Shown one piece after another: positions 4,080 through 21,382 of a stretch of 64,000 nt of DNA (positions are counted from its first letter, which is position 1; every line of letters starts with the position of its first letter). The stretch is from contig CAXRHT010000001.1 of NCBI GenBank assembly GCA_964230645.1, positions 800,001 through 864,000 on the forward strand. Direction: 5' to 3'. The notes under the pieces are model-generated. The model saw only the letters and a list, made by a program, of their open reading frames with translations. It was not told the DNA's origin and made no database searches. The DNA comes from Bdellovibrionales bacterium. Lineage in GTDB: Bacteria; Bdellovibrionota; Bdellovibrionia; Bdellovibrionales; JAGQZY01. The position numbers and the translations under genes were made by a program.

Positions 4080-4238
4080 CGTGTGCTTCTAACATCGATT
4101 TTAACTGCTCCGAAGAAATCACTGCAAATTGTAACTTTTCCATACATTCTGGGTTGGACAACAAAAATTATAATATTTGTTTATATGATTGACCAGGATC
4201 AACCAATAGCTTAGGGTCGCAAAATCAAGAGGTGACCT

Positions 4239-4577
4239 ATGTCCAAAAAATTATTTTTTCTTGTTTCTTTTATTTCTAGCTGTTTCGCTAGTGCAAGAGC
4301 TTCAGTTGACGTTACCGGTAGTGATTTCATGGAAAATGGAAATTCTAGACATGAATTCGTCGGGCAAGAAGAAATGCTTTTACATTTCTCAAATAGTGAT
4401 AAAATAGACCAATTCTTCAAGGATAACTCTTGTGCTTATGGAGTGGGAAATGAAATACAAAGTGAAGACGACGTTGTGGTTGATCTCACTAATTGTGACG
4501 TTATTATCGTTCCTCCTGATGTGGAAATTCTTGCCGCAGGAAATGTTTGGGAAGAAGGAGGTCGAAACTTCCTTTAA
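4239..4577 (+). CDS. Small secreted acidic protein; candidate peptide/RiPP precursor
   Basis: GAGGTG RBS at 4229-4234; Sec signal ending ASARA; acidic mature part with 2 Cys; C-terminus ILAAGNVWEEGGRNFL; first gene of the SBP-YcaO-kinase cassette. Confidence 0.65.
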   Translation: MSKKLFFLVSFISSCFASARASVDVTGSDFMENGNSRHEFVGQEEMLLHFSNSDKIDQFFKDNSCAYGVGNEIQSEDDVVVDLTNCDVIIVPPDVEILAAGNVWEEGGRNFL

Positions 4578-6018
4578 GGAAGTCGACCTGACCTTTTTTC
4601 TTCACCAGAAAAATCCATTTTCTACTAGTATTTATAAAAGTGATTATTTCAGAAACAACGCCCTGATGGTTAATCTGATCGGTTCACTTGTAAAAACTGA
4701 CAACGCAGGAAAATACAACCTGTATCTTGCAAAAAAATTGCAAACTACACTTGATAAGAAAACTTGGATCTTTACCCTCAGAGACAATCTATCTTGTGAA
4801 AATGGTGAAAAGATCACCGCAGCCTCCTACGCGAAAAACCTCACTCAGTCCTTGAAACGGTACAGCCGGATGGGGCAACTGCTTGAATTTAAGAAGCTCT
4901 CTGGAGCTAACGAGCTCGATAAATGGGATACCACACAAATTCCTGGAATAACCTACGAAGCAAACAACCTAATCTTGAAATTTGACCAAAGGCCAGAACA
5001 ATTGTTTGAGCGCTTGGCTGATAGATATTTCGGATACATTTGTTCAGGGAATTTTGAGGAGGATAATTACACTTGGAAAGACGAAAGTAAAATTATTTCA
5101 AGTGGTCCTTATAGAATCCATGAAGTAACGTCAGAATGGGACTTTACCTTAATTTATAGAAAAAAAGGGTCGGTTCCAAGGGAAACAGAGTTCAAAAAAG
5201 TAAGGTATAAAATTGTGAGTGATCCAAATGACATTCACAGCTCAACTTTTGTTGCTCAGCTCAACGAAATAATTCCCAAGAAGAAAAATGTTAATCTTGT
5301 CGGGGGAGTTCCAACATTTACAGTCAATCTGTCACTTCCGATCTGGGAAAAGTCTATCTTTCAAAATATTAAATCACGAAAATATTTTTTCTTTGAGCTC
5401 TACAATATAAAACAGAAAACACGATACAATGACACTTCAACTGTTTCTGCAAACAGTTTCTTCCCCCTTGACCAAAGAGACTATTTTTCCGAATACTACA
5501 AAAATAATAAAGTAAGACCTTGGATGTTTGAACAGAAAAGAACGGCTGTGGTTTCTTTGTCTACCGGTTTACCTCAAGATTATCAGAAATTGATTATCGA
5601 TAATTTAAAAACTATCGGACAAAAAATGAATTTCGAAATAGAACTTTACGATCCCCGAAAACACCAAGCTAAGACTCCAGAAAACATTAAGCCCTTTGAT
5701 ATCCGAATCACCTCAGTTGATATGGATGCCATTCCTTATTTTTCTCTTCTAGACATGATATTCTGTTCGGAATTGGGAGTGAGATATTCGGACAACGGAG
5801 GTAGAGTTTGCAAGTTCATAAACCAGCATATTAACACTCATAACGGACCTTTAGATACAGCTCAACGAGAGCAGTTACATAAACTCATTCTTGATAATGG
5901 ATTGGTCATGCCCTTGGCGCACAGGTCTCTAACATATATGTACTCAGACAACATCGATCTCAGTACTGTTTCAGCTTCTGGCCTTCACCCAGTGCCGAAT
6001 TTACTGAAGAAAAAATGA
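4450..6018 (+). CDS. Family-5 (OppA/DppA-like) extracellular solute-binding protein with N-terminal membrane anchor
   Basis: LVKTD..G...LA, KTWIFTLRDNL..ENGEKITA and SSGPYRI motifs of SBP_bac_5. Preferred start is ATG 4450 with GGAG at 4440-4443, giving MKYKVKTTLWLISLIVTLLSFLLMW (the ORF track starts at 4432). Confidence 0.8.
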   Translation: MKYKVKTTLWLISLIVTLLSFLLMWKFLPQEMFGKKEVETSFKEVDLTFFLHQKNPFSTSIYKSDYFRNNALMVNLIGSLVKTDNAGKYNLYLAKKLQTTLDKKTWIFTLRDNLSCENGEKITAASYAKNLTQSLKRYSRMGQLLEFKKLSGANELDKWDTTQIPGITYEANNLILKFDQRPEQLFERLADRYFGYICSGNFEEDNYTWKDESKIISSGPYRIHEVTSEWDFTLIYRKKGSVPRETEFKKVRYKIVSDPNDIHSSTFVAQLNEIIPKKKNVNLVGGVPTFTVNLSLPIWEKSIFQNIKSRKYFFFELYNIKQKTRYNDTSTVSANSFFPLDQRDYFSEYYKNNKVRPWMFEQKRTAVVSLSTGLPQDYQKLIIDNLKTIGQKMNFEIELYDPRKHQAKTPENIKPFDIRITSVDMDAIPYFSLLDMIFCSELGVRYSDNGGRVCKFINQHINTHNGPLDTAQREQLHKLILDNGLVMPLAHRSLTYMYSDNIDLSTVSASGLHPVPNLLKKK

Positions 6019-6860
6019 GAAAGTTAAGTATTTTCGAAAAGGCGCCTGAGAAACCTATTGTATATATGCAGAAACAGCAAGGCTTTGAAGATAATCAATC
6101 ATTTTATCATGTTACCCTACATTTTCCATCTACAAACATACTAGCCTCTGGAAGCGACCGAAGCAAGAGGATCGCTACCAACAAAGCTTGCTGTGAAGCT
6201 GTTGAAAGATTATTTTACCATAGGCACCAAGGCACAGATGTCATGAAATTCCGAGAACTTAATTCAACCACATGTATGGCTGCAGGTTTTGATTTAAGAA
6301 AAACTATTCAACGTTCGAACAACGAATGTGTAGAAAGGTATATTAAGTTACTTATTAATCAAAAAAAGTTCACACCAAAAAAGTCTCAAATTGCTAAATC
6401 AGATTATCGTTACCTTGCAGGATGTTTCGATCGTATAGAGAGGTTTACCGTGCAAGTTTCGTTTTTAGACTATAATGGTATTTCACAGGTTCGCTGGTTT
6501 ACGCTTTGTCTTTGTTGGCAAAAAGGTCGCTTTGTAACAGGTTCTTCTGTGAATAATTCTGCTGAAATGGCTACGGAACACTCTCTTGTCGAAGCTAAAA
6601 GAAACTTAACTATACTAAACAAACTGGATTCGCCACCCTATAATCAGTTTAAAAATTCGTTTTATTCAAAAGTAAAAAAAATGTCGAAATCAGGAGTAAA
6701 AGCCCTAAACTACTTGGAGAATATTAACATCGAAAAAGACCAAGTCATGCTTCCAAAAATCTACTGGCAGGAGTACTCTAATTTTCTCGGCACACACGTC
6801 TGTCGATCTTTTCTACAAGGGTACCTCTTAGACCTACCAAACCAGAAGGATCTTTTTTGA
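6015..6860 (+). CDS. Compact YcaO-like family protein
   Basis: YcaO-type motifs in order: SGSD...A..KACCEAVER, NSTTCMAAG......RSNNECVER, GSS.....A...SLVEA; ATGA-coupled to the upstream gene. Confidence 0.7.
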   Translation: MRKLSIFEKAPEKPIVYMQKQQGFEDNQSFYHVTLHFPSTNILASGSDRSKRIATNKACCEAVERLFYHRHQGTDVMKFRELNSTTCMAAGFDLRKTIQRSNNECVERYIKLLINQKKFTPKKSQIAKSDYRYLAGCFDRIERFTVQVSFLDYNGISQVRWFTLCLCWQKGRFVTGSSVNNSAEMATEHSLVEAKRNLTILNKLDSPPYNQFKNSFYSKVKKMSKSGVKALNYLENINIEKDQVMLPKIYWQEYSNFLGTHVCRSFLQGYLLDLPNQKDLF

Positions 6861-8020
6861 AGCCCAAAAAATCAGTTTTCCAGGAAAAACGCTTATACAC
6901 TCTTCTATTTTTAACCACACTGGCAGGATTATCCCTGGTTCAAATTATTTTCTATATTTTGATGCTTTCAAACAGTACAGTAATTACGAAGACTCTAAGA
7001 GAAAGTTTTGATATTGGTCTCTACGAGTCTGATTTTGACAATGCTTCTATTCTTATGCGAAATCTCGAAAAAGCAGACATTTTAGATTGTGTTTCACTCA
7101 AGATTAAGACAATCGATCAGCTTTTCGTTGTCTACTCCTCTGCTGTCCAGGAAACTTGTAATCCCTCAAGCTTTTTACTCAATGGTGTCAGGGTTGAAGG
7201 TTCTCTTGCTGGCAACACTGGAAACTCATGGATTTATTCCTTTGTAGTTCGAATGGACCAGAATCACGTTCTATTGTTATGGTTTTGCCGTCTTCTGTCT
7301 TGCATTGTTTCATTCGCTTTAACTTATTTTTTTGTTCAGAACAATCTGCATATTAAACAAAAGGAAGATGAAATTTCACTAAACATGAGAGCTATAGCTC
7401 ACGACCTAACATCGCCTATTGGACTCCTTAGAATGCTTTCTAGTCAGCAAAAGTCATTGAATAATGACAAAACCCTTGGCTACATGAAAAATGCTACCGA
7501 AAGGCTTTCAGATATCTCACAAACTATTCTAGATGGAACCCTTGATATTTACTCTTCTTCTAGAGAAACTTTTAATATCAAGAAAATAACTGAAAAGATC
7601 GTTGAAGAGAAGATTAACTTCTTTGGTGATTCGATCAGTGTTGATATCGAAACCTCCGTTGCAAACCACAACTTAAATGTTATCGGGAACAGTCAGAAAT
7701 TTGAAAGAATCTTATCAAATATGATTAACAATTCTTTTGAGGCTCTCTCAGAGAAAGTATCAGTGCTTCAGATGAAAATCGTTTTGAAGTCTGAAAATTC
7801 TAAAATAACTGTTCAAATATCTGATAATGGTTCGGGCATAAGTGATAGCCTTTTGAATCATTTAGGTGAAAAAGTCGTAAAATCAACAAAAAAAGGGGGG
7901 AGTGGCCTTGGGCTCTATCTCGCCAAAAAGGATATCGGCGAATGGGGAGGAGAGTTTAAAATTAAAACTACAAGTCCCACCGGCACAACCTTTGAAATCT
8001 CTCTTCCTAGAAGCGTTTAA
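6857..8020 (+). CDS. Membrane sensor histidine kinase (no adjacent response regulator)
   Basis: Two TM segments; H-box IAHDLTSP; N-box LSNMINNS; G1 DNGSG; G2 GSGLGL; TTGA-coupled start. Confidence 0.9.
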   Translation: MKPKKSVFQEKRLYTLLFLTTLAGLSLVQIIFYILMLSNSTVITKTLRESFDIGLYESDFDNASILMRNLEKADILDCVSLKIKTIDQLFVVYSSAVQETCNPSSFLLNGVRVEGSLAGNTGNSWIYSFVVRMDQNHVLLLWFCRLLSCIVSFALTYFFVQNNLHIKQKEDEISLNMRAIAHDLTSPIGLLRMLSSQQKSLNNDKTLGYMKNATERLSDISQTILDGTLDIYSSSRETFNIKKITEKIVEEKINFFGDSISVDIETSVANHNLNVIGNSQKFERILSNMINNSFEALSEKVSVLQMKIVLKSENSKITVQISDNGSGISDSLLNHLGEKVVKSTKKGGSGLGLYLAKKDIGEWGGEFKIKTTSPTGTTFEISLPRSV

Positions 8021-11030: not shown

Positions 11031-11828
11031 ATGTTTAGACAACTTAGAGTACCCACCCTTTATTTCGCCATTTTTATTAGTTTTTTAACTTTTGCTCCCA
11101 TGGATTTTGCCCATGCAAAAAAGTTTCGGAATTCCTATGTCAGCTTTGAACTTCCCAACCGCTGGGACTGTTATTTAGAAAATACGGCCTGGATTTGTCG
11201 ATATGCGATTTCCAAGGCTTGTCTCGGAGCTGGTGCGAAGAAAAAAGAATGTGCGGTACAAAGAAAGAAAACAAAAGAGGCCATTATTATTCTGGCGGCA
11301 AAAGAGGTAGGCCCCAAAGACTCCTTTAAAGAGTACTACACTCACTTAAAAACTCCCCGTCCAATTATCACTAAAGGCGGAAAGCGAAGTGCCTCAAAAA
11401 TTATTCACGTTAAGCCTATCAGTATTGAAAAACATCGTTGGATTGATGGAATGCATTTGGGAAGTGAGATTCCCCACTACTACACAAGGTACCTGGCCAC
11501 ACTCAAGGGTAATATCGCGGTCCTTGTCACCTTCAGTGCCCATAAACTTTTTTACTCAAAATACAGCTCCGAGTTTTTTAGAGCCATCAAGTCTTTAAGA
11601 GTACTTGCTACAAAAGCGAAAACAGTCGACCGAAGGGAACTCACCAAAGGAACTGGCATCCTAGGGGACAACAATATTGGAAGCTACTTAAATGATGCCA
11701 TCGATAATGCCAACGAGGGCTTTGATGGTGACGCCACCTCCGGTATGGGTCTTGACGTTTATTTAATGATTGGAGCTCTTTTATTAGCACTTGCTGGAAT
11801 TGTCGTGTGGCTTAAAGGACGTCGTTAA
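11031..11828 (+). CDS. Secreted, C-terminally membrane-anchored protein (tandem paralog 1)
   Basis: Signal peptide; FRNSYVSFELPNRWDC; PHYYTRYL..KGNIAVLVTF; C-terminal TM plus KGRR. Confidence 0.8.
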   Translation: MFRQLRVPTLYFAIFISFLTFAPMDFAHAKKFRNSYVSFELPNRWDCYLENTAWICRYAISKACLGAGAKKKECAVQRKKTKEAIIILAAKEVGPKDSFKEYYTHLKTPRPIITKGGKRSASKIIHVKPISIEKHRWIDGMHLGSEIPHYYTRYLATLKGNIAVLVTFSAHKLFYSKYSSEFFRAIKSLRVLATKAKTVDRRELTKGTGILGDNNIGSYLNDAIDNANEGFDGDATSGMGLDVYLMIGALLLALAGIVVWLKGRR

Positions 11829-11831
11829 TAA

Positions 11832-12587
11832 ATGACTAAAAAAGCTCCTCTTATCTTTGCTCTTTTCTTTTGTCTTTATGCTGAAAGCAGCTACGGGCGA
11901 ATGTTTAAGAACTCCTACATTCAGTTTCACCTCCCCGATCGGTGGGACTGTGAAATGCAGGGTAAGGGTTATCTTTGTCGACACAAGATTTCAGCCTCCT
12001 GCCAAGGCAATCCTGAGAGTAAAGTCTGTAAAGAGGAAGTAAAGAAATCAAGGGAAGCCGTCATCGTCTTTACAGCCAAGGAAAAAAGTGAGGTGGATAG
12101 TTTTGAAAATTATTTGAACCACTTCAAAACACCTAAAAAAGTCCAGATAAAACCGGGATCGAGCACCCAGTCTAAACTTATTCACGGCAAAATTGTTGGA
12201 ATCCGAAACTACAAATGGGTCGATACCATGCATCTCAGTAGTGAGCTTCCACACTACTACACTCGTTACTTATCAACCATCAAAGGCAACATCGCCGTCC
12301 TTGTCACTTTCACATCTCATAAGCTTTTTTACACTCAGTACTCCAACACTTTTTTTAAATCGATTAAAAGCCTGAGTGTGACAGCTTCGAATTTAAATAG
12401 CGTGGATAAAAATGAAGTGGGTAACAAAATACTTTCACAACCCATCGACATACCCGATGAATTTTTTACACAGACCGGCCCACAAGAATCCGGAGGCGAT
12501 GGTCTCTCCCCTATCTTATTTGCACTCGCTATGCTGCTTGCCGGTACGGGTGTTTATTTGTGGATAAAGAAACGTAAAAAGTCTTGA
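11832..12587 (+). CDS. Secreted, C-terminally membrane-anchored protein (tandem paralog 2)
   Basis: Clear similarity to 11031..11828; SGGDG plus TM plus KKRKKS tail. Confidence 0.8.
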   Translation: MTKKAPLIFALFFCLYAESSYGRMFKNSYIQFHLPDRWDCEMQGKGYLCRHKISASCQGNPESKVCKEEVKKSREAVIVFTAKEKSEVDSFENYLNHFKTPKKVQIKPGSSTQSKLIHGKIVGIRNYKWVDTMHLSSELPHYYTRYLSTIKGNIAVLVTFTSHKLFYTQYSNTFFKSIKSLSVTASNLNSVDKNEVGNKILSQPIDIPDEFFTQTGPQESGGDGLSPILFALAMLLAGTGVYLWIKKRKKS

Positions 12588-14344: not shown

Positions 14345-17300
14345 TCACTGAAAACCTTTAATCCAGGAAACATACACATCAGAGCCTATACGTTGAAAAG
14401 TATAGACTGTGCGAGTACCACTTTCTCTTGGGCCGTTCGCCGGCGAGAAAAAGAATGTTAAGCCCGTTTGCGAGAAATCACATTGGCTCGTACCGGTTTC
14501 TGAGACAGCCAGAATATAGGTACCACCATCAAGCATATTGCTAAAAGTTGTGGTGTCACAGTCTACATTCATAGTCTGAGCATTACCATTATCCCAATCC
14601 ACTGTAGCTGTTGTATTGACCTCAGAGGATCCGCTGGAATTGACACTACGAACTTGTCCTGCGACATCGAGTTTACCCACAGGGCTTGTTGTTCCTATTC
14701 CCACTTCACCAGTTGAATTTATAGAGAATGGAATTTGAGGCGCTCCATTATCGTAATTCACAATCGAGACCGCACTATCAATTGAGCCAGCCGTGGCATC
14801 AGTCATTACGAACCTAAAATTTCCTAAAGATTCAACAACCCCTTCTGTGGCTGTTTCGGCTGCAAATTGAAGTTGGTTGCCTGATCCATTGGCTCCCACA
14901 CCACTTGGATTTGTAGTACGAAGTTGTAGGACATTGCTTCCAGCACCGGCTCTTTCGGCAATTACTGCGACCTCTCCATCGGCGTAGACATGTAATTTTT
15001 TATCCGGCGCTGAAGTTCCTATTCCTAAGCGCCCTTGATTATCAAGCCGCATTTGTTCTTCGACCGCAGAATCGTTGGTATACCAACTAAAGTAACCATC
15101 ACCACCCGAGTGGTAAAATTGAAATTCGTTATCTTCACTAGCATTAAGATAACCTAGTTTGACCGTTTCGTTACCATCAGAGCCACGACTGAAATAAGCG
15201 ATTCCCGCATCGCCTCCTGCCGAATCACCAATAGTTAGTTTACCATGAACATCTAAGGCTTCTCTCGGTGCTGTTGTACCAATTCCGACCCGTCCTGAAG
15301 AATCAATTTGTAAGCGTCCTACACCACCTGTCGCTAAGCCCACTGTATCTGCCGCTGACATATAAAGCCCGGTGTCGGTATCAGTTCTGATCGTATATAG
15401 AGGAGTAGAAGCGGAGCTACTACCGTTATATCTTAGATAGGCTCCAGTAACATTTGCTGAATAAAAATCACTTGAGGAAAAGACCCAACGCTGAGTTCCA
15501 TTTGAAGAGTATCGAATAACTCCATCAGCTGAATTGAAAAAACCCGTATCCTCATCTCCATCAAATGTAAGACCTGGAGCACCTGCAGAACCACCTACAG
15601 CCTGTAGAGCTCCTGTCATTGGCACAGATCCATCAGCAAGAAAATCGCCACCACTAGCCCAACCTGTTGATATATCCTTACAGTTAGCGCCAGTTTCATC
15701 GCACAATTGTTGAGCTCTTATATTGCCTGCGACATCAAGTATATCACCGGGGGAAGTGGTACCAATTCCAACATTTCCGGAACCATCAATGACCATTCGT
15801 TGAGTGTTATCATTCCAGAAGGCGATCTCACCGGTACCACTGGCCTCAATATACATTTGACCTGTTTGACTAGGGGCAGAGGCATTTCCATACCCCACCC
15901 AACCGGCATGAGCATTATTGCTCGCCATAAAGTCTATACTAGACCAACCAAAGTTATTGGTGGATTGAATGGTCATAAGATCTGTAGAGTTTGATGTCAC
16001 AATTTCAAAGGCAGACCCTGGAGCACTGGTTCCAATTCCAACATTACCTGAGGTGTAGGAAATATCACCGGCATTATCTGTCCAAAGACTTCCACCTGAA
16101 ATACCATCGGACAGATCAATACAGTTACTATTGTCTTCATCACAAATCTCAGCAGCGTTGATTCTACCTGTGTGAACGTCAAGTTCAACAACGGGGGCAC
16201 TTGTACCAATTCCAACTGCTCCACTGCCACCTCTTATTCTAAAGTATTCTGTGAGAGCTCCTCCCGTACCATCGGCACCACCAGAGATCGTAAAATCACC
16301 ACCTCCACTGGCCGCTAGTTCCACGTCAAAGTTTGCTCCACTTCTGTCAAATCTAAACGTAGGATTGACATCGGATATTGTTAACAGTTGATCAGGATTC
16401 GTTGTGCCTATTCCCACATTACCATTGCTTGTGACCCGCATTCGTTCAGTGTTGTTTGTTGTGAAGCGGACATCTGCTGTGTTGTTCGTTCTAAGTTCAA
16501 CATAGTCATTTGCGGAGAACAGGGTCGCACCGCCAACACCAGAAGAGTTCCCCATACGCAGATAGTTTCCAGAATTTGATCCGTAGAGGAAATCATACAA
16601 GTAGGCGTTACCTTCAAAGTTAATGTTCTGAGTCGAATCAATGTTTATGGCCGTCGTGTTATTAGTTTCAAGATTCAAATCTTGAGCATCGTTGGTTCCC
16701 ACTGTTACCGGAGCACTCAGGGAGTTCCCTCCATTGAGAATATCTCCTCCACCACCGCTGCCACCAGCCTCTACCCAACTTGAGCCGTCGTAATATTTTA
16801 ATTTATTAAAATCAGCACTATCAATAGCTAGATCACCAGCAGCCCCAGTTCCAGGGAGAGCTGCAGGCGTAATTCTCATAGCACCGTCGACGTGAAGCAG
16901 TCGCTCCGGTGCTGTAGTACCAATCCCTAAATACCCAGAGCTCGCTATACGCATTTTCTCACTGGTCGATCCTGCTGATCTTGTAACAAATCTCATGGCG
17001 GTATTGGATGCAGAGCCTTCATTGGCGACGGCAATTTGACCCATTGTATTTCCACTGTATTCAAATTGTAGGAAACGAAAAGAGGACCCTCCTCCACTGG
17101 TATTGTCTATCGTAATTCCATAACCGCCACCGCTCTGCCCTCTAAATTCAGCATTATTTGAGTTGCTGAAATTAAGTCCGTAAGTGGTACTACCTGTTCC
17201 ATTTATATATTGATTCGCTAAATTTATATCACCAGTCATTTGGCCACCGGCTAGAGGTAAAAAGTCTGTACCTCCACTAGCCTCAATCCAGGTCGAACCA

Positions 17301-20300
17301 TCATAAAATTTTAATTTATTAGAATCCGAAGTATCCACAGCTAAAACTCCGGCATCAGGAGTTCCTGGTAAAGTGGAGGGTTGAATTCGCATCGCACCAG
17401 CGACTTCTAGCCGTTGAGTTGGTGTGGTCGTTCCAATACCAATATTCCCTGTTTCATCCATGAGAAGCCTTACTTCCCCCGCCGTTCCATCAAAAAGAGT
17501 AAATTTACCGGCTCCGACCGAATTTCCAGAGCCCGAGGAGAAGAGCTCGTAGTCTCTTCCCCCTGTGTCTGTGGAGAGTAAATGCAGGCCAACACCATTA
17601 GCTCCATAACTTTCTAAAAATGCATCAGTACCATTACCTGAAAGATGAAACTCGCCAGAGGGAACTGTCGTACCTATTCCAACATTTCCATTATTCAGGA
17701 TGGTCATTGCAGTCGAGTTGTTGGTTTCAAAGTTTAAGGCAAAAGAATCATTGGTACCTATGGTGACCGCAGCAGCTTCTGTATTACCACCATCCATTAT
17801 ATAGCCGCTTGAAGACAGTAAAGAGTTGATCTCACTGGCTGAGCGCACGAAATTATCTCGAGTCATTTTTCTTAAGCCACCAGCTGAGGTGTCAAAAATC
17901 AATAATTCGTCCCCTGGCGCCACCGTGGATTCTGCTGTTTCATTAGTAATATCGACATTCACACCCGTACCATCGACGGTAATGGCATCACCACCAACAA
18001 CTTCAATATCGTCGGCATTAACGTTAATTCCATTTCCTGCTCCTACAGCAAGTGTGCGATCAGAGGTCAGATCACCTCCACCCGTCAGACCAGCCCCAGA
18101 GGCGATAGATCTTGTTGTTGATACCTTAGCAGCTTCAAGCTCGACAAGAGCGGCTTGTAAAGTTGTGGCCGTTAGAGGAGTGGTTCCGACCGGAATAGCT
18201 GTTGGATCAAAAGCACTCTCATCAATTGTTAATGTGACATTATCGGTATCTGATGAAACAGCGATCTTACCATTAGCAGAACCAATGGATTTAAACTCTA
18301 AATTGAGTCCGTTCTTCGCTTTAAAGACACCTTCACCTGTACCAACATTAGCACCATCATTGACCTCTCCACCGGCGGCTGTTCCGAAAGCTTCCCAACT
18401 TGCACCATCACAATAGGAAACACTTGAGCCACTATACTTTAGAGTACCAGCCTTTGTTCCATCACAAAGGGCAAGGTCATCACCAATCTGAACTCCTCCT
18501 GCAACCTGTAGCTGCGATGTTGGAGTGGTGGTACCGATACCGACACTACCTGAGGTTCGGCCTACAGTAAGAGCCGTTCCAAAAGTGTCTGTCGCTAAAT
18601 TTAAATCACCTGAAATCGATGTCAGGGTTGTATCGGTCAGATTTAATTTGTCAGAGGCCGAGTCACTTTTACGGAAGTTTATTCCGCCTGGCCCGCCTCC
18701 AATAATCTCTCCACTTTGTACACGAACATCCCCATCGACATCTAATTTAAAAAGTGGACTAGAACTTCCGATTCCAACATTTCCTCCAAAAGCCGCCAGG
18801 TAACTGTCACTTTTACCTAAAAGGTGATTCACGTCATTAGAGCCATTGGCCCTATAGATCATAAAATTGGCACTACCTGAAGTATTCGAGTCTCGAAATA
18901 TACCCACATTGTGTAATGAACCTCCACCGCCTGTTGGACTTATATTTATTGTTGCGGTGGTGCCAGTTGAATTAGAAATAGTTGAGACGGTACTATCATG
19001 GCTAATTCTAAATCTTCGATTAAGATCTGTATCAGTTAAAGTAAAAACCGGAAAAGCAGATGCTATATCTAGTAAGCTTGAGGGAGCTGTAGTTCCGACC
19101 CCGACATTCCCATTGTCATCTACAATAAAGCTGGTTGTTCCGTTGTCTTGGACTTGGAAATTATTAGTACCTGTCAGATTCCAAACAACATCTGTAGAAT
19201 CAACCGTGACACTTGAACCATTGTCGTAAGCGTCATCTAAACTTTGAGTTTCTGCGGTTAAATATCCAGCCGCCGAGTGGTCTCCCCAACTAAAGGCGGT
19301 ATCCCAATCGGTGGAATTGTTGGTCACAGTCGTATAGGTATTCGCACCCGTTCTAACTAAAAGACCGTTTGTTGAAAACACATTATCGAGCTCTGTGCCT
19401 GTGATATTTTGTAAAAACCCTTCATTGGAGGCGAAGGTACCGACTTCACTTTGACTCAGTACAAAATTTGACCTTGTGATTTCTTTTAAATTTCCAGCGT
19501 CTTCACTGTCTCTTATTAAAAGACTATCGGCAGCAACGGCAGAAGTTAATTTGTCAGCCGTTCCGGCGACATCAACATTAACACCTGTGCCATCAACACT
19601 GATTCCGGTTCCAGCTCTGACTTCAATGTCATCAGCATTCACTGTAATACCGTTGCCAGCTCCTATGTCAAAAGTACGATCGAAGCTTAAGTCACCACCA
19701 CCGGTTAGACCTTGTCCCGCTGTTACACTTCTTGATTCTGCTGCGACGCTGGTCCAAGAAAGGACTCCGGCGCCATTTGTTTGTAGCACTTGTCCTGCTC
19801 CTCCGTCATCATCCGGAAGAGTCCACACAAAGGAAGACACGGCATTCACAGTGTTCGGCGCTTGAAATCCAACATACTTTGTTCCCGTATCCTGGAATCT
19901 TAATTCTGTAGTCACCCCTCCATTGAGATCCATCACCAGGTTTCCTGTCATGGAGTCACCACTTTTAGCGAGCTTTTCAGTGCTTAATTCTTCAATCGCT
20001 CCCTGCACTTCTGTGGCTGTATCCACATCACCACCATAGGTGTTATCAAAAGTGATTAAGTCGGCATCATAGTCACCCGCTGTCGCAACGACATTTCCTG
20101 TCCGTCCAAAAACTTGGGTCACTCCCGCGTTAACATCTTGCCAGGAGAGCACTCCACTTCCATCGGTTTGTAAGTATTGTCCAGGGTCACCATCGTTATC
20201 CGGTAGAATTAAATTAACCGTTGTCGCAAGGGCTGCTGGTGAGTGTAATGAGACATAATCAGAACCGTTTCCAGTGGCCTCAGCTAACTGCAGTTCACTT

Positions 20301-21382
20301 TCGTTTTCTAAGTTAATATTACCAGCGGAATTAATCCCGTTGGTAACACCAATCCCACCCGAGACGGTAAGGTTGTTACCTATACTAGCATCTTGGCCCG
20401 CACTTAAATTATTGGTGGCAGAAATATTGTTGTTAGCTGAAATATCATTAGTATTTGAAATGTCTTGATTTCCCATGTTGATGGAACCAGTCATGGTTCC
20501 ACCTCCCAATGGGAGTTTATTCACATCGTTTATCACTTGCGAGTTCCACTGCGTGCCATCCCAGGTCAGGACTTCGCCATTCTGACCGGCACCAAGAGCA
20601 CCAAGATCCGCGGTATCGACCTGTTGTCCACCGATGTAGCTACGAGCATAGCCGACGTTCACAGCGTCGGAATCTGTAGCTGGGTTGGGATCCGCGAGAT
20701 TGACTATTTTTTGGTTGTTGTTGTCCACGTCTGCTGTTGGAGCGCCCGCTGTAAAACTCGTGCTTGTTCCATCAAGAAGAGCTTGTAGCTCTGTCCAATT
20801 GCTGTCGTTAAAAACAATCTCCATATTAGTTTGGCTAAGATTGAATCCAGGCCCGCTATTGACCTGAATAAAGTCACCGACTCCAAGGCCACTGATCGAA
20901 CTGGCATTGGTAGCGTAGGGAACGCTGACGATGTTGTGATCTTGAGCTAATGTCACAGGACCTGAGCCATCATTAAAAGTTATTCGTAACCGTCTTCCAT
21001 CATTGGGACTTGGAGCATAACTCCCACCCATGACACAAAGATCAGGGTTCACAGTGCCTGTGGAATTACTAAGCGCTGTCGCTAAGTTTGTCGTATCCTG
21101 ATATTGCGCCCCGGACTGCGTCCCTAAGCCTACTTCGATGGCAAAAATACCATTGGAGTTTGACATATTGAGGGTATGCTCCTCACGGTAGAGAATACAT
21201 TCCTCAGCCCCTGGTGAAATCAGCTCGATACGAAAATCAACATTAGAAGCCTCAAGCGCTTGTCCGTTGGGCTTTATAATCTGACCTTGATAAGTAAAGT
21301 TCTCTGGGCCAGAAAAGGCCAAAGAGGGAAGAAATAAGACAGAGCTTATTAGGAAAATAAAGATTCGGTCAGTAACGTGCAC
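14345..21382 (-). CDS. Large mosaic trimeric fibre adhesin (Bdellovibrio MAT / phage tail-fibre-like), 2345 aa
   Basis: Signal peptide; N-terminal YQGQIIKPNG..LE...CILYREE; about 13 GxVGIGTxxP repeats; GLTGGGDL and LPxxDG..GQxLQTxGxGVLSW fibre modules; no C-terminal S74 chaperone motif recognised. Confidence 0.85.
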   Translation of the reverse strand: MHVTDRIFIFLISSVLFLPSLAFSGPENFTYQGQIIKPNGQALEASNVDFRIELISPGAEECILYREEHTLNMSNSNGIFAIEVGLGTQSGAQYQDTTNLATALSNSTGTVNPDLCVMGGSYAPSPNDGRRLRITFNDGSGPVTLAQDHNIVSVPYATNASSISGLGVGDFIQVNSGPGFNLSQTNMEIVFNDSNWTELQALLDGTSTSFTAGAPTADVDNNNQKIVNLADPNPATDSDAVNVGYARSYIGGQQVDTADLGALGAGQNGEVLTWDGTQWNSQVINDVNKLPLGGGTMTGSINMGNQDISNTNDISANNNISATNNLSAGQDASIGNNLTVSGGIGVTNGINSAGNINLENESELQLAEATGNGSDYVSLHSPAALATTVNLILPDNDGDPGQYLQTDGSGVLSWQDVNAGVTQVFGRTGNVVATAGDYDADLITFDNTYGGDVDTATEVQGAIEELSTEKLAKSGDSMTGNLVMDLNGGVTTELRFQDTGTKYVGFQAPNTVNAVSSFVWTLPDDDGGAGQVLQTNGAGVLSWTSVAAESRSVTAGQGLTGGGDLSFDRTFDIGAGNGITVNADDIEVRAGTGISVDGTGVNVDVAGTADKLTSAVAADSLLIRDSEDAGNLKEITRSNFVLSQSEVGTFASNEGFLQNITGTELDNVFSTNGLLVRTGANTYTTVTNNSTDWDTAFSWGDHSAAGYLTAETQSLDDAYDNGSSVTVDSTDVVWNLTGTNNFQVQDNGTTSFIVDDNGNVGVGTTAPSSLLDIASAFPVFTLTDTDLNRRFRISHDSTVSTISNSTGTTATINISPTGGGGSLHNVGIFRDSNTSGSANFMIYRANGSNDVNHLLGKSDSYLAAFGGNVGIGSSSPLFKLDVDGDVRVQSGEIIGGGPGGINFRKSDSASDKLNLTDTTLTSISGDLNLATDTFGTALTVGRTSGSVGIGTTTPTSQLQVAGGVQIGDDLALCDGTKAGTLKYSGSSVSYCDGASWEAFGTAAGGEVNDGANVGTGEGVFKAKNGLNLEFKSIGSANGKIAVSSDTDNVTLTIDESAFDPTAIPVGTTPLTATTLQAALVELEAAKVSTTRSIASGAGLTGGGDLTSDRTLAVGAGNGINVNADDIEVVGGDAITVDGTGVNVDITNETAESTVAPGDELLIFDTSAGGLRKMTRDNFVRSASEINSLLSSSGYIMDGGNTEAAAVTIGTNDSFALNFETNNSTAMTILNNGNVGIGTTVPSGEFHLSGNGTDAFLESYGANGVGLHLLSTDTGGRDYELFSSGSGNSVGAGKFTLFDGTAGEVRLLMDETGNIGIGTTTPTQRLEVAGAMRIQPSTLPGTPDAGVLAVDTSDSNKLKFYDGSTWIEASGGTDFLPLAGGQMTGDINLANQYINGTGSTTYGLNFSNSNNAEFRGQSGGGYGITIDNTSGGGSSFRFLQFEYSGNTMGQIAVANEGSASNTAMRFVTRSAGSTSEKMRIASSGYLGIGTTAPERLLHVDGAMRITPAALPGTGAAGDLAIDSADFNKLKYYDGSSWVEAGGSGGGGDILNGGNSLSAPVTVGTNDAQDLNLETNNTTAINIDSTQNINFEGNAYLYDFLYGSNSGNYLRMGNSSGVGGATLFSANDYVELRTNNTADVRFTTNNTERMRVTSNGNVGIGTTNPDQLLTISDVNPTFRFDRSGANFDVELAASGGGDFTISGGADGTGGALTEYFRIRGGSGAVGIGTSAPVVELDVHTGRINAAEICDEDNSNCIDLSDGISGGSLWTDNAGDISYTSGNVGIGTSAPGSAFEIVTSNSTDLMTIQSTNNFGWSSIDFMASNNAHAGWVGYGNASAPSQTGQMYIEASGTGEIAFWNDNTQRMVIDGSGNVGIGTTSPGDILDVAGNIRAQQLCDETGANCKDISTGWASGGDFLADGSVPMTGALQAVGGSAGAPGLTFDGDEDTGFFNSADGVIRYSSNGTQRWVFSSSDFYSANVTGAYLRYNGSSSASTPLYTIRTDTDTGLYMSAADTVGLATGGVGRLQIDSSGRVGIGTTAPREALDVHGKLTIGDSAGGDAGIAYFSRGSDGNETVKLGYLNASEDNEFQFYHSGGDGYFSWYTNDSAVEEQMRLDNQGRLGIGTSAPDKKLHVYADGEVAVIAERAGAGSNVLQLRTTNPSGVGANGSGNQLQFAAETATEGVVESLGNFRFVMTDATAGSIDSAVSIVNYDNGAPQIPFSINSTGEVGIGTTSPVGKLDVAGQVRSVNSSGSSEVNTTATVDWDNGNAQTMNVDCDTTTFSNMLDGGTYILAVSETGTSQCDFSQTGLTFFFSPANGPRESGTRTVYTFQRIGSDVYVSWIKGFQ

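Follow-up and report, generated by a model that had tools for sequence, protein, structure and literature searches.

The window analysed here is a 64,000-nucleotide stretch of the genome of a Bdellovibrionales bacterium. Its forward strand carries a run of four genes encoding a small protein, a family-5 (OppA/NikA-like) binding protein (SBP), a short YcaO-family enzyme and a membrane sensor histidine kinase (Table 1). The run has a G+C content of 0.35–0.40, compared with 0.43 for the genome, and its YcaO is the only YcaO match in that genome. The best PDB relatives of the SBP are OppA proteins (E 2e-17), which bind oligopeptides. Unlike in an Opp/Dpp ABC importer operon, no permease or ATPase gene lies beside the SBP, the next genes being those of YcaO and the kinase. 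The cassette of the window also has no response regulator, and no protease or exporter gene was found in it. Further along the window, two tandem paralogous predicted exported proteins of 265 and 251 aa with C-terminal hydrophobic anchors are encoded at 11031–12587 (+), and a 2345-aa ORF with many GNVGIGTT-like repeats lies at 14345–21382 (−); we take the latter to resemble the fibre/adhesin proteins of Bdellovibrio-type bacteria.

Table 1. Features of the four-gene run, in window coordinates
Feature	Position	Strand	Description or basis
Shine-Dalgarno-like GAGGTG of the small ORF	4229..4234	+	Sequence; duplex energy −10.9 kcal/mol
Small ORF and small protein	4239..4577	+	112 aa; residues 1–21 signal-peptide-like, then a small alpha/beta domain (predicted) and a C-terminal tail carrying the family-invariant Asn
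GGAG ribosome-binding site of the SBP, within the small ORF	4440..4443	+	Sequence; −6.9 kcal/mol for ATG 4450
Dual-coding overlap, 128 bases, +1 phase	4450..4577	+	ORF calls, contigs, homologue comparison
Family-5 (OppA/NikA-like) SBP	4450..6018	+	522 aa; PF00496 43.6 bits (cut-off 32.4)
Predicted N-terminal membrane anchor LWLISLIVTLLSFLLMW	4474..4524	+	Three Lys ahead; hydropathy 2.63 over 15 residues
Codon of invariant Asn102, candidate modification site	4542..4544	+	Asn in 32/33 loci
Second in-frame SBP ATG, past the anchor	4543..4545	+	Family Met enrichment; no Shine-Dalgarno site here (+1.3)
Short YcaO-family enzyme	6015..6860	+	281 aa; PF02624 29.1 bits (cut-off 25.7); invariant ExxER motifs
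Membrane sensor histidine kinase	6857..8020	+	387 aa; HATPase_c E 8e-19; NCBIfam kinase models below cut-offs

The overlap had been proposed in an earlier note on this DNA, with the SBP starting at ATG 4450 in the +1 frame of the small ORF (4239–4577). These boundaries were recovered, with the SBP ORF ending at 6018, both translations quoted there match the sequence exactly, and the GGAG placed 6 nt ahead of ATG 4450 is present at 4440–4443. The basic-then-hydrophobic anchor described for the SBP was also found by prediction, as three lysines followed by a run with a hydropathy of 2.63; 3′ of the small ORF stop the best value in the window is just 0.97, with no run comparable to the anchor. 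Two points had been overlooked: GTG 4462 is in the SBP frame and would also preserve the anchor, and ATG 4543 (EMF) sits in a zone where second methionines are enriched throughout the family.

An indel in the reads could create an overlap of this kind artificially. Logan contigs of the runs X1, X2 and X3 cross the whole overlap with 0 differing letters and 0 gaps, and a contig of run X4 covering 4459–4741 likewise has 0 differing letters and 0 gaps; the four runs come from one marine study, two of them perhaps being the source of the assembly, and do not represent independent biology. The gap-free contigs argue against an assembly slip, and the overlap in the window is confirmed as real. A stop-free +1 frame with a Met and a hydrophobic run over the last 43 codons is found in 10 of 2423 long ORFs of this genome. 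When the small ORF of the window was synonymously recoded, the +1 frame of its final 90 nt was open and just as hydrophobic in 0.18% of 5000 trials.

At the level of RNA, a strong hairpin with a T run at its end lies at 4550–4600 of the window, centred on the TAA of the small ORF (−28.8 kcal/mol, z −3.5). A conserved structure, attenuator or terminator at the small ORF stop was rejected, with a mean z of about 0 at every offset across 33 loci. No conserved RNA structure was found at the SBP start in 33 loci, and a promoter and terminator scan gave hits at chance level.

Comparison with homologous cassettes, which had been put forward as a check, showed that the overlap is retained. A profile search of 384 genomes of the window's order found SBP homologues in 45, and 7 of 201 genomes of a second order also matched. 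The order search produced 53 match rows, with G142:C418 and G096:C15 left out; L022 and L023, both identical to L014, were removed, as was the 58-codon ORF of L050, which is unrelated, and L020 and L021 were below the profile threshold. The 50 core SBP loci consist of 40 at 200 bits or more, four new loci and six new loci from the second order. In 36 of the 50, a homologous small ORF overlaps the SBP in the same +1 phase; measured from the best start the overlaps are 89–176 nt long, mostly 92–140 nt. SBP identity to the window falls from 56% down to 26–27%, and the overlap is present in five families of the window's order as well as in genomes labelled Bacteriovoracaceae and Oligoflexia. Labelled relatives are mostly Bdellovibrionota (Bdellovibrionales, Bacteriovoracaceae, Oligoflexia), with one contig labelled Bacillota. 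For the second order, used as a hold-out, the overlap was seen in three of the five loci with a small gene, the genes being separated in the other two.

The 14 core loci that do not overlap are of several kinds. One is cut at a contig end, and eight have neither the small gene nor the anchor. L031 (upstream of 2051) has two stops in the small ORF with the SBP and YcaO frames intact, and is possibly a signal-negative receiver. Two more (L044, L073) have a decayed small frame and have kept the hydrophobic stretch. In the remaining two, the genes are separated. The gap in L080 (1195–1452 on) is 45 nt and the SBP has a lipoprotein-type signal; this locus has two tandem SBPs, the first with that signal and the second with none, followed by YcaO and a kinase-like ORF. 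The gap in L084 (1166–1543 on) is 14 nt and the SBP has a new anchor. The old +1 frame of L084 still reads Met-Lys-Lys-hydrophobic for 62 codons before reaching a stop, and no longer enters the SBP, so such a reading can persist unconnected. Both separated loci keep the small tail with its Asn plus an SBP export signal; each part is therefore needed on its own.

In a quick tree of 52 SBPs (L019, L022, L023, L057 and L058 excluded), 42 core rows were split from 10 distant rows at a support of 100. In the distant clade the cassettes are of this kind too, with short overlaps or none. The overlap label must change at least seven times on this tree; given a root outside the core, this would fit an overlap that was ancestral and was lost repeatedly. 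By these comparisons, the overlap is common to one SBP clade.

That both frames look functional, as had been claimed, is supported by the stop codons and third bases of the overlapped DNA. In 30 small ORFs, the SBP frame of the final 90 nt has 0 stops in 900 codons, compared with 123 in 1694 further upstream, and T occupies 46% of third positions in the overlap compared with 33% upstream. Synonymous recoding would be expected to leave 8.7 loci open, compared with the observed 30 of 30; as loci were chosen partly by an overlapping ORF of at least 40 nt, there is some circularity in the 'open' counts up to 40 nt (the observed minimum being 98). With the small-protein residues fixed, an open and equally hydrophobic +1 frame had a P below 0.05 on recoding in 27 of 30 loci. 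The loci in all of these statistics are related and not independent. The boundary of the constrained region is seen by aligning the loci on the Asn: 27 stops in the +1 frame fall at codons −31 to −34 (32 loci) and none from −29 onward, and third-position T reaches 56–75% at codons −18 to −9.

Reduced synonymous variation had been proposed as a further check, and third bases are indeed constrained. Identity between loci at four-fold sites is 0.445 in the overlap and 0.303 upstream; the corresponding signal in the SBP frame is small (0.33–0.34 versus 0.28). On the SBP side, the start ahead of the hydrophobic run is ATG in 30 of 33 loci (18.3 expected) and GTG in the other three, the N-terminal piece carries a net positive charge in 30 of 33, and all 33 loci scored read as a start followed by a hydrophobic run, mostly with basic residues in between. 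On the side of the small protein, 32 of 33 loci have the Asn, whose spacing from an E-G/E motif is nearly constant, and its codons have A at both first positions in 32/32, the first of these being the wobble base for the SBP. We regard dual coding of the overlap DNA as highly probable.

The small protein belongs to a family of about 100 clusters at 50% identity. The window protein has no Pfam or NCBIfam family above cut-off, a search with both collections over 30 small proteins gave at most 2/30 per family with none convincing, and a single-protein homologue search returned the query protein itself as its sole match. Among 97 family representatives shorter than 200 aa, 92 have an Asn within the last 22 residues and 78 have an NK motif. 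The tail of L038 is an exception, its small ORF stopping ahead of the Asn position. In the overlapped region of L036, L039, L042, L045, L046, L053, L054, L055 and L081–L083 there is a CxxC (e.g. DLSCFNC). The structural model of the window protein is poor (pLDDT 60), and that of a relative, P0004, has a small alpha/beta domain with a pLDDT of about 74–87 over residues 21–90 and a looser tail. Fold searches with P0004 turned up nothing clear (the best Z was 4.1, and Foldseek had no match at E 0.001), and an Atlas feature search gave no usable match. Most of the small proteins have a signal-like N-terminus, as judged by eye; several of 78–84 aa do not (L028, L033, L034; P0011, P0012, P0017, P0018), and export may be different in this subgroup.

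The YcaO enzyme retains the residues E61, E64, R65, E104, E107, R108, E193 and R196, which are invariant in the 20 members aligned, 16 of which match PF02624 at E ≤0.01. The ExxER motifs of YcaO proteins have a role with ATP and Mg. Its best PDB matches are MJ1094 and the E. coli YcaO, tied at E 3e-4, and kinship to the TfuA-independent archaeal YcaOs is at most weakly indicated by these matches. A search for TfuA was negative in all five near-complete genomes (0/5), with the positive control matched in Methanosarcina. YcaOs that form azolines (LAP/cyanobactin type) act on a conserved Cys/Ser/Thr core and have an E1-like or RRE partner gene; neither azoline-type feature was seen here, the Asn being the only invariant residue of the tail and the cassette having no partner gene. 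In the window and in G007, a Cys replaces the near-invariant Gly87 of YcaO, the C-terminal RF(L/V)Y is missing, and the small protein has NV/NL in place of NK; the YcaO and small protein of these two genomes are a long-branch subtype.

YcaO follows the SBP in all 32 overlap loci that have downstream sequence, and a kinase-like ORF follows YcaO in 22 of 28. Where the small gene is absent, YcaO is mostly absent or truncated, the exceptions being L037 and L031; L044 has kept the SBP and kinase with neither YcaO nor small gene. With five loci lacking a full downstream YcaO skipped, the distances of SBP, YcaO and kinase covary with a rho of 0.71–0.80 (SBP–YcaO 0.71, SBP–kinase 0.77), and those of the small-protein core and SBP with a rho of 0.64. 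The whole cassette therefore travels together. In the distant cassettes L021 (G033:C16), L019 (G030:C109) and L061, an unassigned 309-aa gene or a 566-aa gene replaces YcaO, or YcaO lies upstream, which suggests that the modifying enzyme is swappable.

Our preferred reading, to which we give a probability of about 0.6, is that the 128 bases encode both the tail of the small protein and the predicted SBP anchor, and that they open a four-gene cassette likely to make and sense a modified exported protein. The sequence comparison shows that it is the compatibility of the two codes that makes the overlap workable. Codon positions 1 and 2 are set by the E-G/E, D, F, V, P and invariant N residues of the small protein, T at its third positions makes the +1 reading hydrophobic, and the +1 ATG often comes from an Asp/Asn/His-Glu pair. 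Ribosomes would initiate de novo at the internal start, giving a periplasmic SBP anchored N-in, C-out. An internal start on a translated ORF may also keep the level of the receptor below that of the precursor.

According to the same reading, the cytoplasmic YcaO would use ATP to alter the backbone at or beside the invariant Asn, with a thioamide or hydrolysis as the best guesses, and the small protein would leave by Sec. The SBP would bind the modified protein and relay to the adjacent kinase. The parts of this scheme differ in strength. That the small protein is the YcaO substrate is probable, the small protein as ligand of the SBP is plausible, and the odds for the full make-and-sense circuit are somewhat better than even.

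The earlier note went further, and took the overlap to be a genetic lock that makes signal and receptor a single specificity unit. Under such a lock, signal-negative cheaters could not delete the core without also forfeiting the receptor anchor. Selection of the overlap for this purpose is unlikely in our view. It would account for the retention of the overlap in 36/50 core loci over long branches and for the joint loss of small gene and anchor in eight loci, and core distance follows the SBP more than it follows YcaO (partial correlations of 0.41 and 0.20), a weak hint of core–SBP co-variation among pairs that are not independent. However, all of the cassette genes co-vary. The shared DNA encodes an anchor and linker, with the binding pocket outside it, which means that receptors could still be exchanged by crossing over within the linker. 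The two parts have also come apart in nature: L080 and L084 are un-overlapped, in L031 the small ORF is broken and the SBP and YcaO are intact, the hydrophobic stretches of L044 and L073 have outlived their small frames, and the distant SBP clade has cassettes of the same kind with short or absent overlaps. The overlap has more likely persisted because un-overlapping requires a new export signal than through a signalling need. Translational coupling by termination–reinitiation, also proposed, is doubtful as well; the SBP starts 89–176 nt before the small stop, often behind its own Shine-Dalgarno-like site, and a start 128 nt ahead of the stop, as in the window, makes reinitiation after termination unlikely. 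A different role for the small protein, as a periplasmic accessory subunit or a modified effector (e.g. metal- or prey-related) with the SBP and kinase sensing something else, has a low probability too. The conserved part of the protein is a predicted folded domain (P0004) rather than a short core behind a leader, there is a CxxC in some members, the cassette is without a protease or exporter gene, and L044 retains the SBP and kinase with YcaO and the small gene gone. Against this, the small gene and YcaO are mostly present or absent jointly, the tail around the Asn varies between loci as a specificity element would, and the nearest solved relatives of the SBP bind oligopeptides.

The remaining alternatives concern how the SBP is translated. 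If it started at the Met just ahead of its folded domain, the hydrophobic +1 reading would be a by-product of the small-protein sequence and there would be no true long overlap. Of 45 anchored loci, with and without the overlap, 34 do have a Met 30–58 residues ahead of the anchor-column Gly, compared with 105 of 348 control proteins, which were scored in a slightly shorter 25-residue window. Anchorless SBPs have a Met at the same place in 8/8 scored, an ATG lies near the small ORF stop in 22 of 33 overlap loci (10.5 expected), and other internal ATGs have slightly more structure in their context than the second Met does (p 0.009). The disconnected hydrophobic frame of L084 is also consistent with a by-product, and in the published survey as available none of 715 co-directional overlaps >60 bp was real (Palleja, Harrington and Bork 2008, PMC2478687). 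We nevertheless consider a late start very unlikely. Recoding rarely yields an open, equally hydrophobic +1 frame, the boundary of stop codons lies sharply and directly before the +1 start, and the non-overlapping distant clade also has both anchor and second Met. The second Met itself has no stronger Shine-Dalgarno site than other internal ATGs (−1.8 versus −1.6) and is missing in 11 of the 45 anchored loci. A programmed +1 frameshift of the prfB kind, fusing the signal peptide and domain of the small protein to the SBP, is more improbable still. The small ORF of the window does end in CTT TAA G, and P0070 (463 aa) is an in-frame fusion of small protein and SBP that switches at the Asn position. 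CTT precedes the stop in 1 of 33 loci, and prfB-type slippage was rejected on this absence of a conserved slippery codon; a late shift would have no need of the separate start and anchor that the +1 frame possesses. P0070 is a singleton from one ENA contig; its match to the SBP model stops at position 361 of 525, its C-terminus departing from the model in the way expected of indel errors, and the fusion is likely an indel artefact. No fusion scored among the longer proteins searched, which carries little weight.

The second Met may have a function alongside the anchored start, and is a possible start for a soluble SBP isoform, at ATG 4543 in the window. Taken furthest, one stretch of DNA would give three products: an exported signal modified at the Asn (likely thioamidated), an anchored periplasmic receptor, and a soluble cytoplasmic receptor or chaperone. 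We put this forward tentatively, and think it on balance improbable.

Dual coding as such is already known. ComS, for example, is encoded inside srfA. XrpA is encoded inside comX of Streptococcus mutans (PMC6563777). Both are likewise small signalling-related proteins read from a second frame within a gene that belongs to their own circuit, but they are nested and act as cytoplasmic regulators, whereas we observe a partial overlap of a likely exported modified protein with a receptor anchor. The survey of co-directional overlaps cited above gave 56 bp as the longest real case and proposed flagging those >60 bp as errors. The overlaps that it describes, holD-rimI among them, are likewise conserved on the same strand, with the 3′ end of one gene over the 5′ end of the next; the overlaps reported here differ in being 89–176 nt long, in spanning several families and in encoding a conserved tail and a predicted anchor.

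Individual parts of the cassette also have counterparts. In the YcaO-TfuA RiPP of the std cluster, the Asn carbonyl of an SNK motif is reported to be thioamidated (bioRxiv 10.64898/2026.05.01.722236). In that cluster, as far as its available description goes, the neighbour of YcaO is likewise a precursor whose C-terminus has a conserved Asn-Lys. The present cassette differs from it: TfuA was not found (0/5 genomes), neither an MNIO nor a peptidase is encoded in the cassette, its YcaO is much shorter, and the small protein begins with a signal-like segment. Bufferins are Sec-exported folded RiPP precursors of 80–120 aa (bioRxiv 10.1101/2024.03.18.585515); these are likewise folded, carry a Sec signal and are modified and then exported, but the chemistry is that of an MNIO on Cys with copper binding, and the available text describes no SBP/kinase overlap. 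Control of a membrane histidine kinase by a periplasmic binding protein is known from CBP–ChiS of Vibrio cholerae (bioRxiv 10.1101/2020.01.10.902320). There and in LuxPQ, as far as described, the binding protein likewise acts on a kinase, with sugars or AI-2 as ligands; the present SBP differs in having a predicted anchor and in sharing coding DNA with its likely ligand. No description of the cassette or of the overlap was found in open-access papers and bioRxiv main texts, and the available part of PMC8939145 does not mention Bdellovibrio. What appears to be new is that a likely precursor of a modified protein and a receptor anchor overlap by 100–140 nt, and that different families have retained this arrangement.

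The un-overlapped, broken and anchorless variants provide natural, built-in controls for studying how dual coding originates and persists, and, for a four-gene YcaO cassette, the comparisons single out the invariant Asn as the residue that is likely modified. If the three-product reading were true, the overlap would set the ratio of the products and would rank with the longest and oldest overlaps known between co-directional chromosomal genes of bacteria, and the cassette would constitute a previously undescribed Gram-negative system of signalling by modified peptides. The cassette is of relevance to possible cell-to-cell signalling in predatory bacteria.
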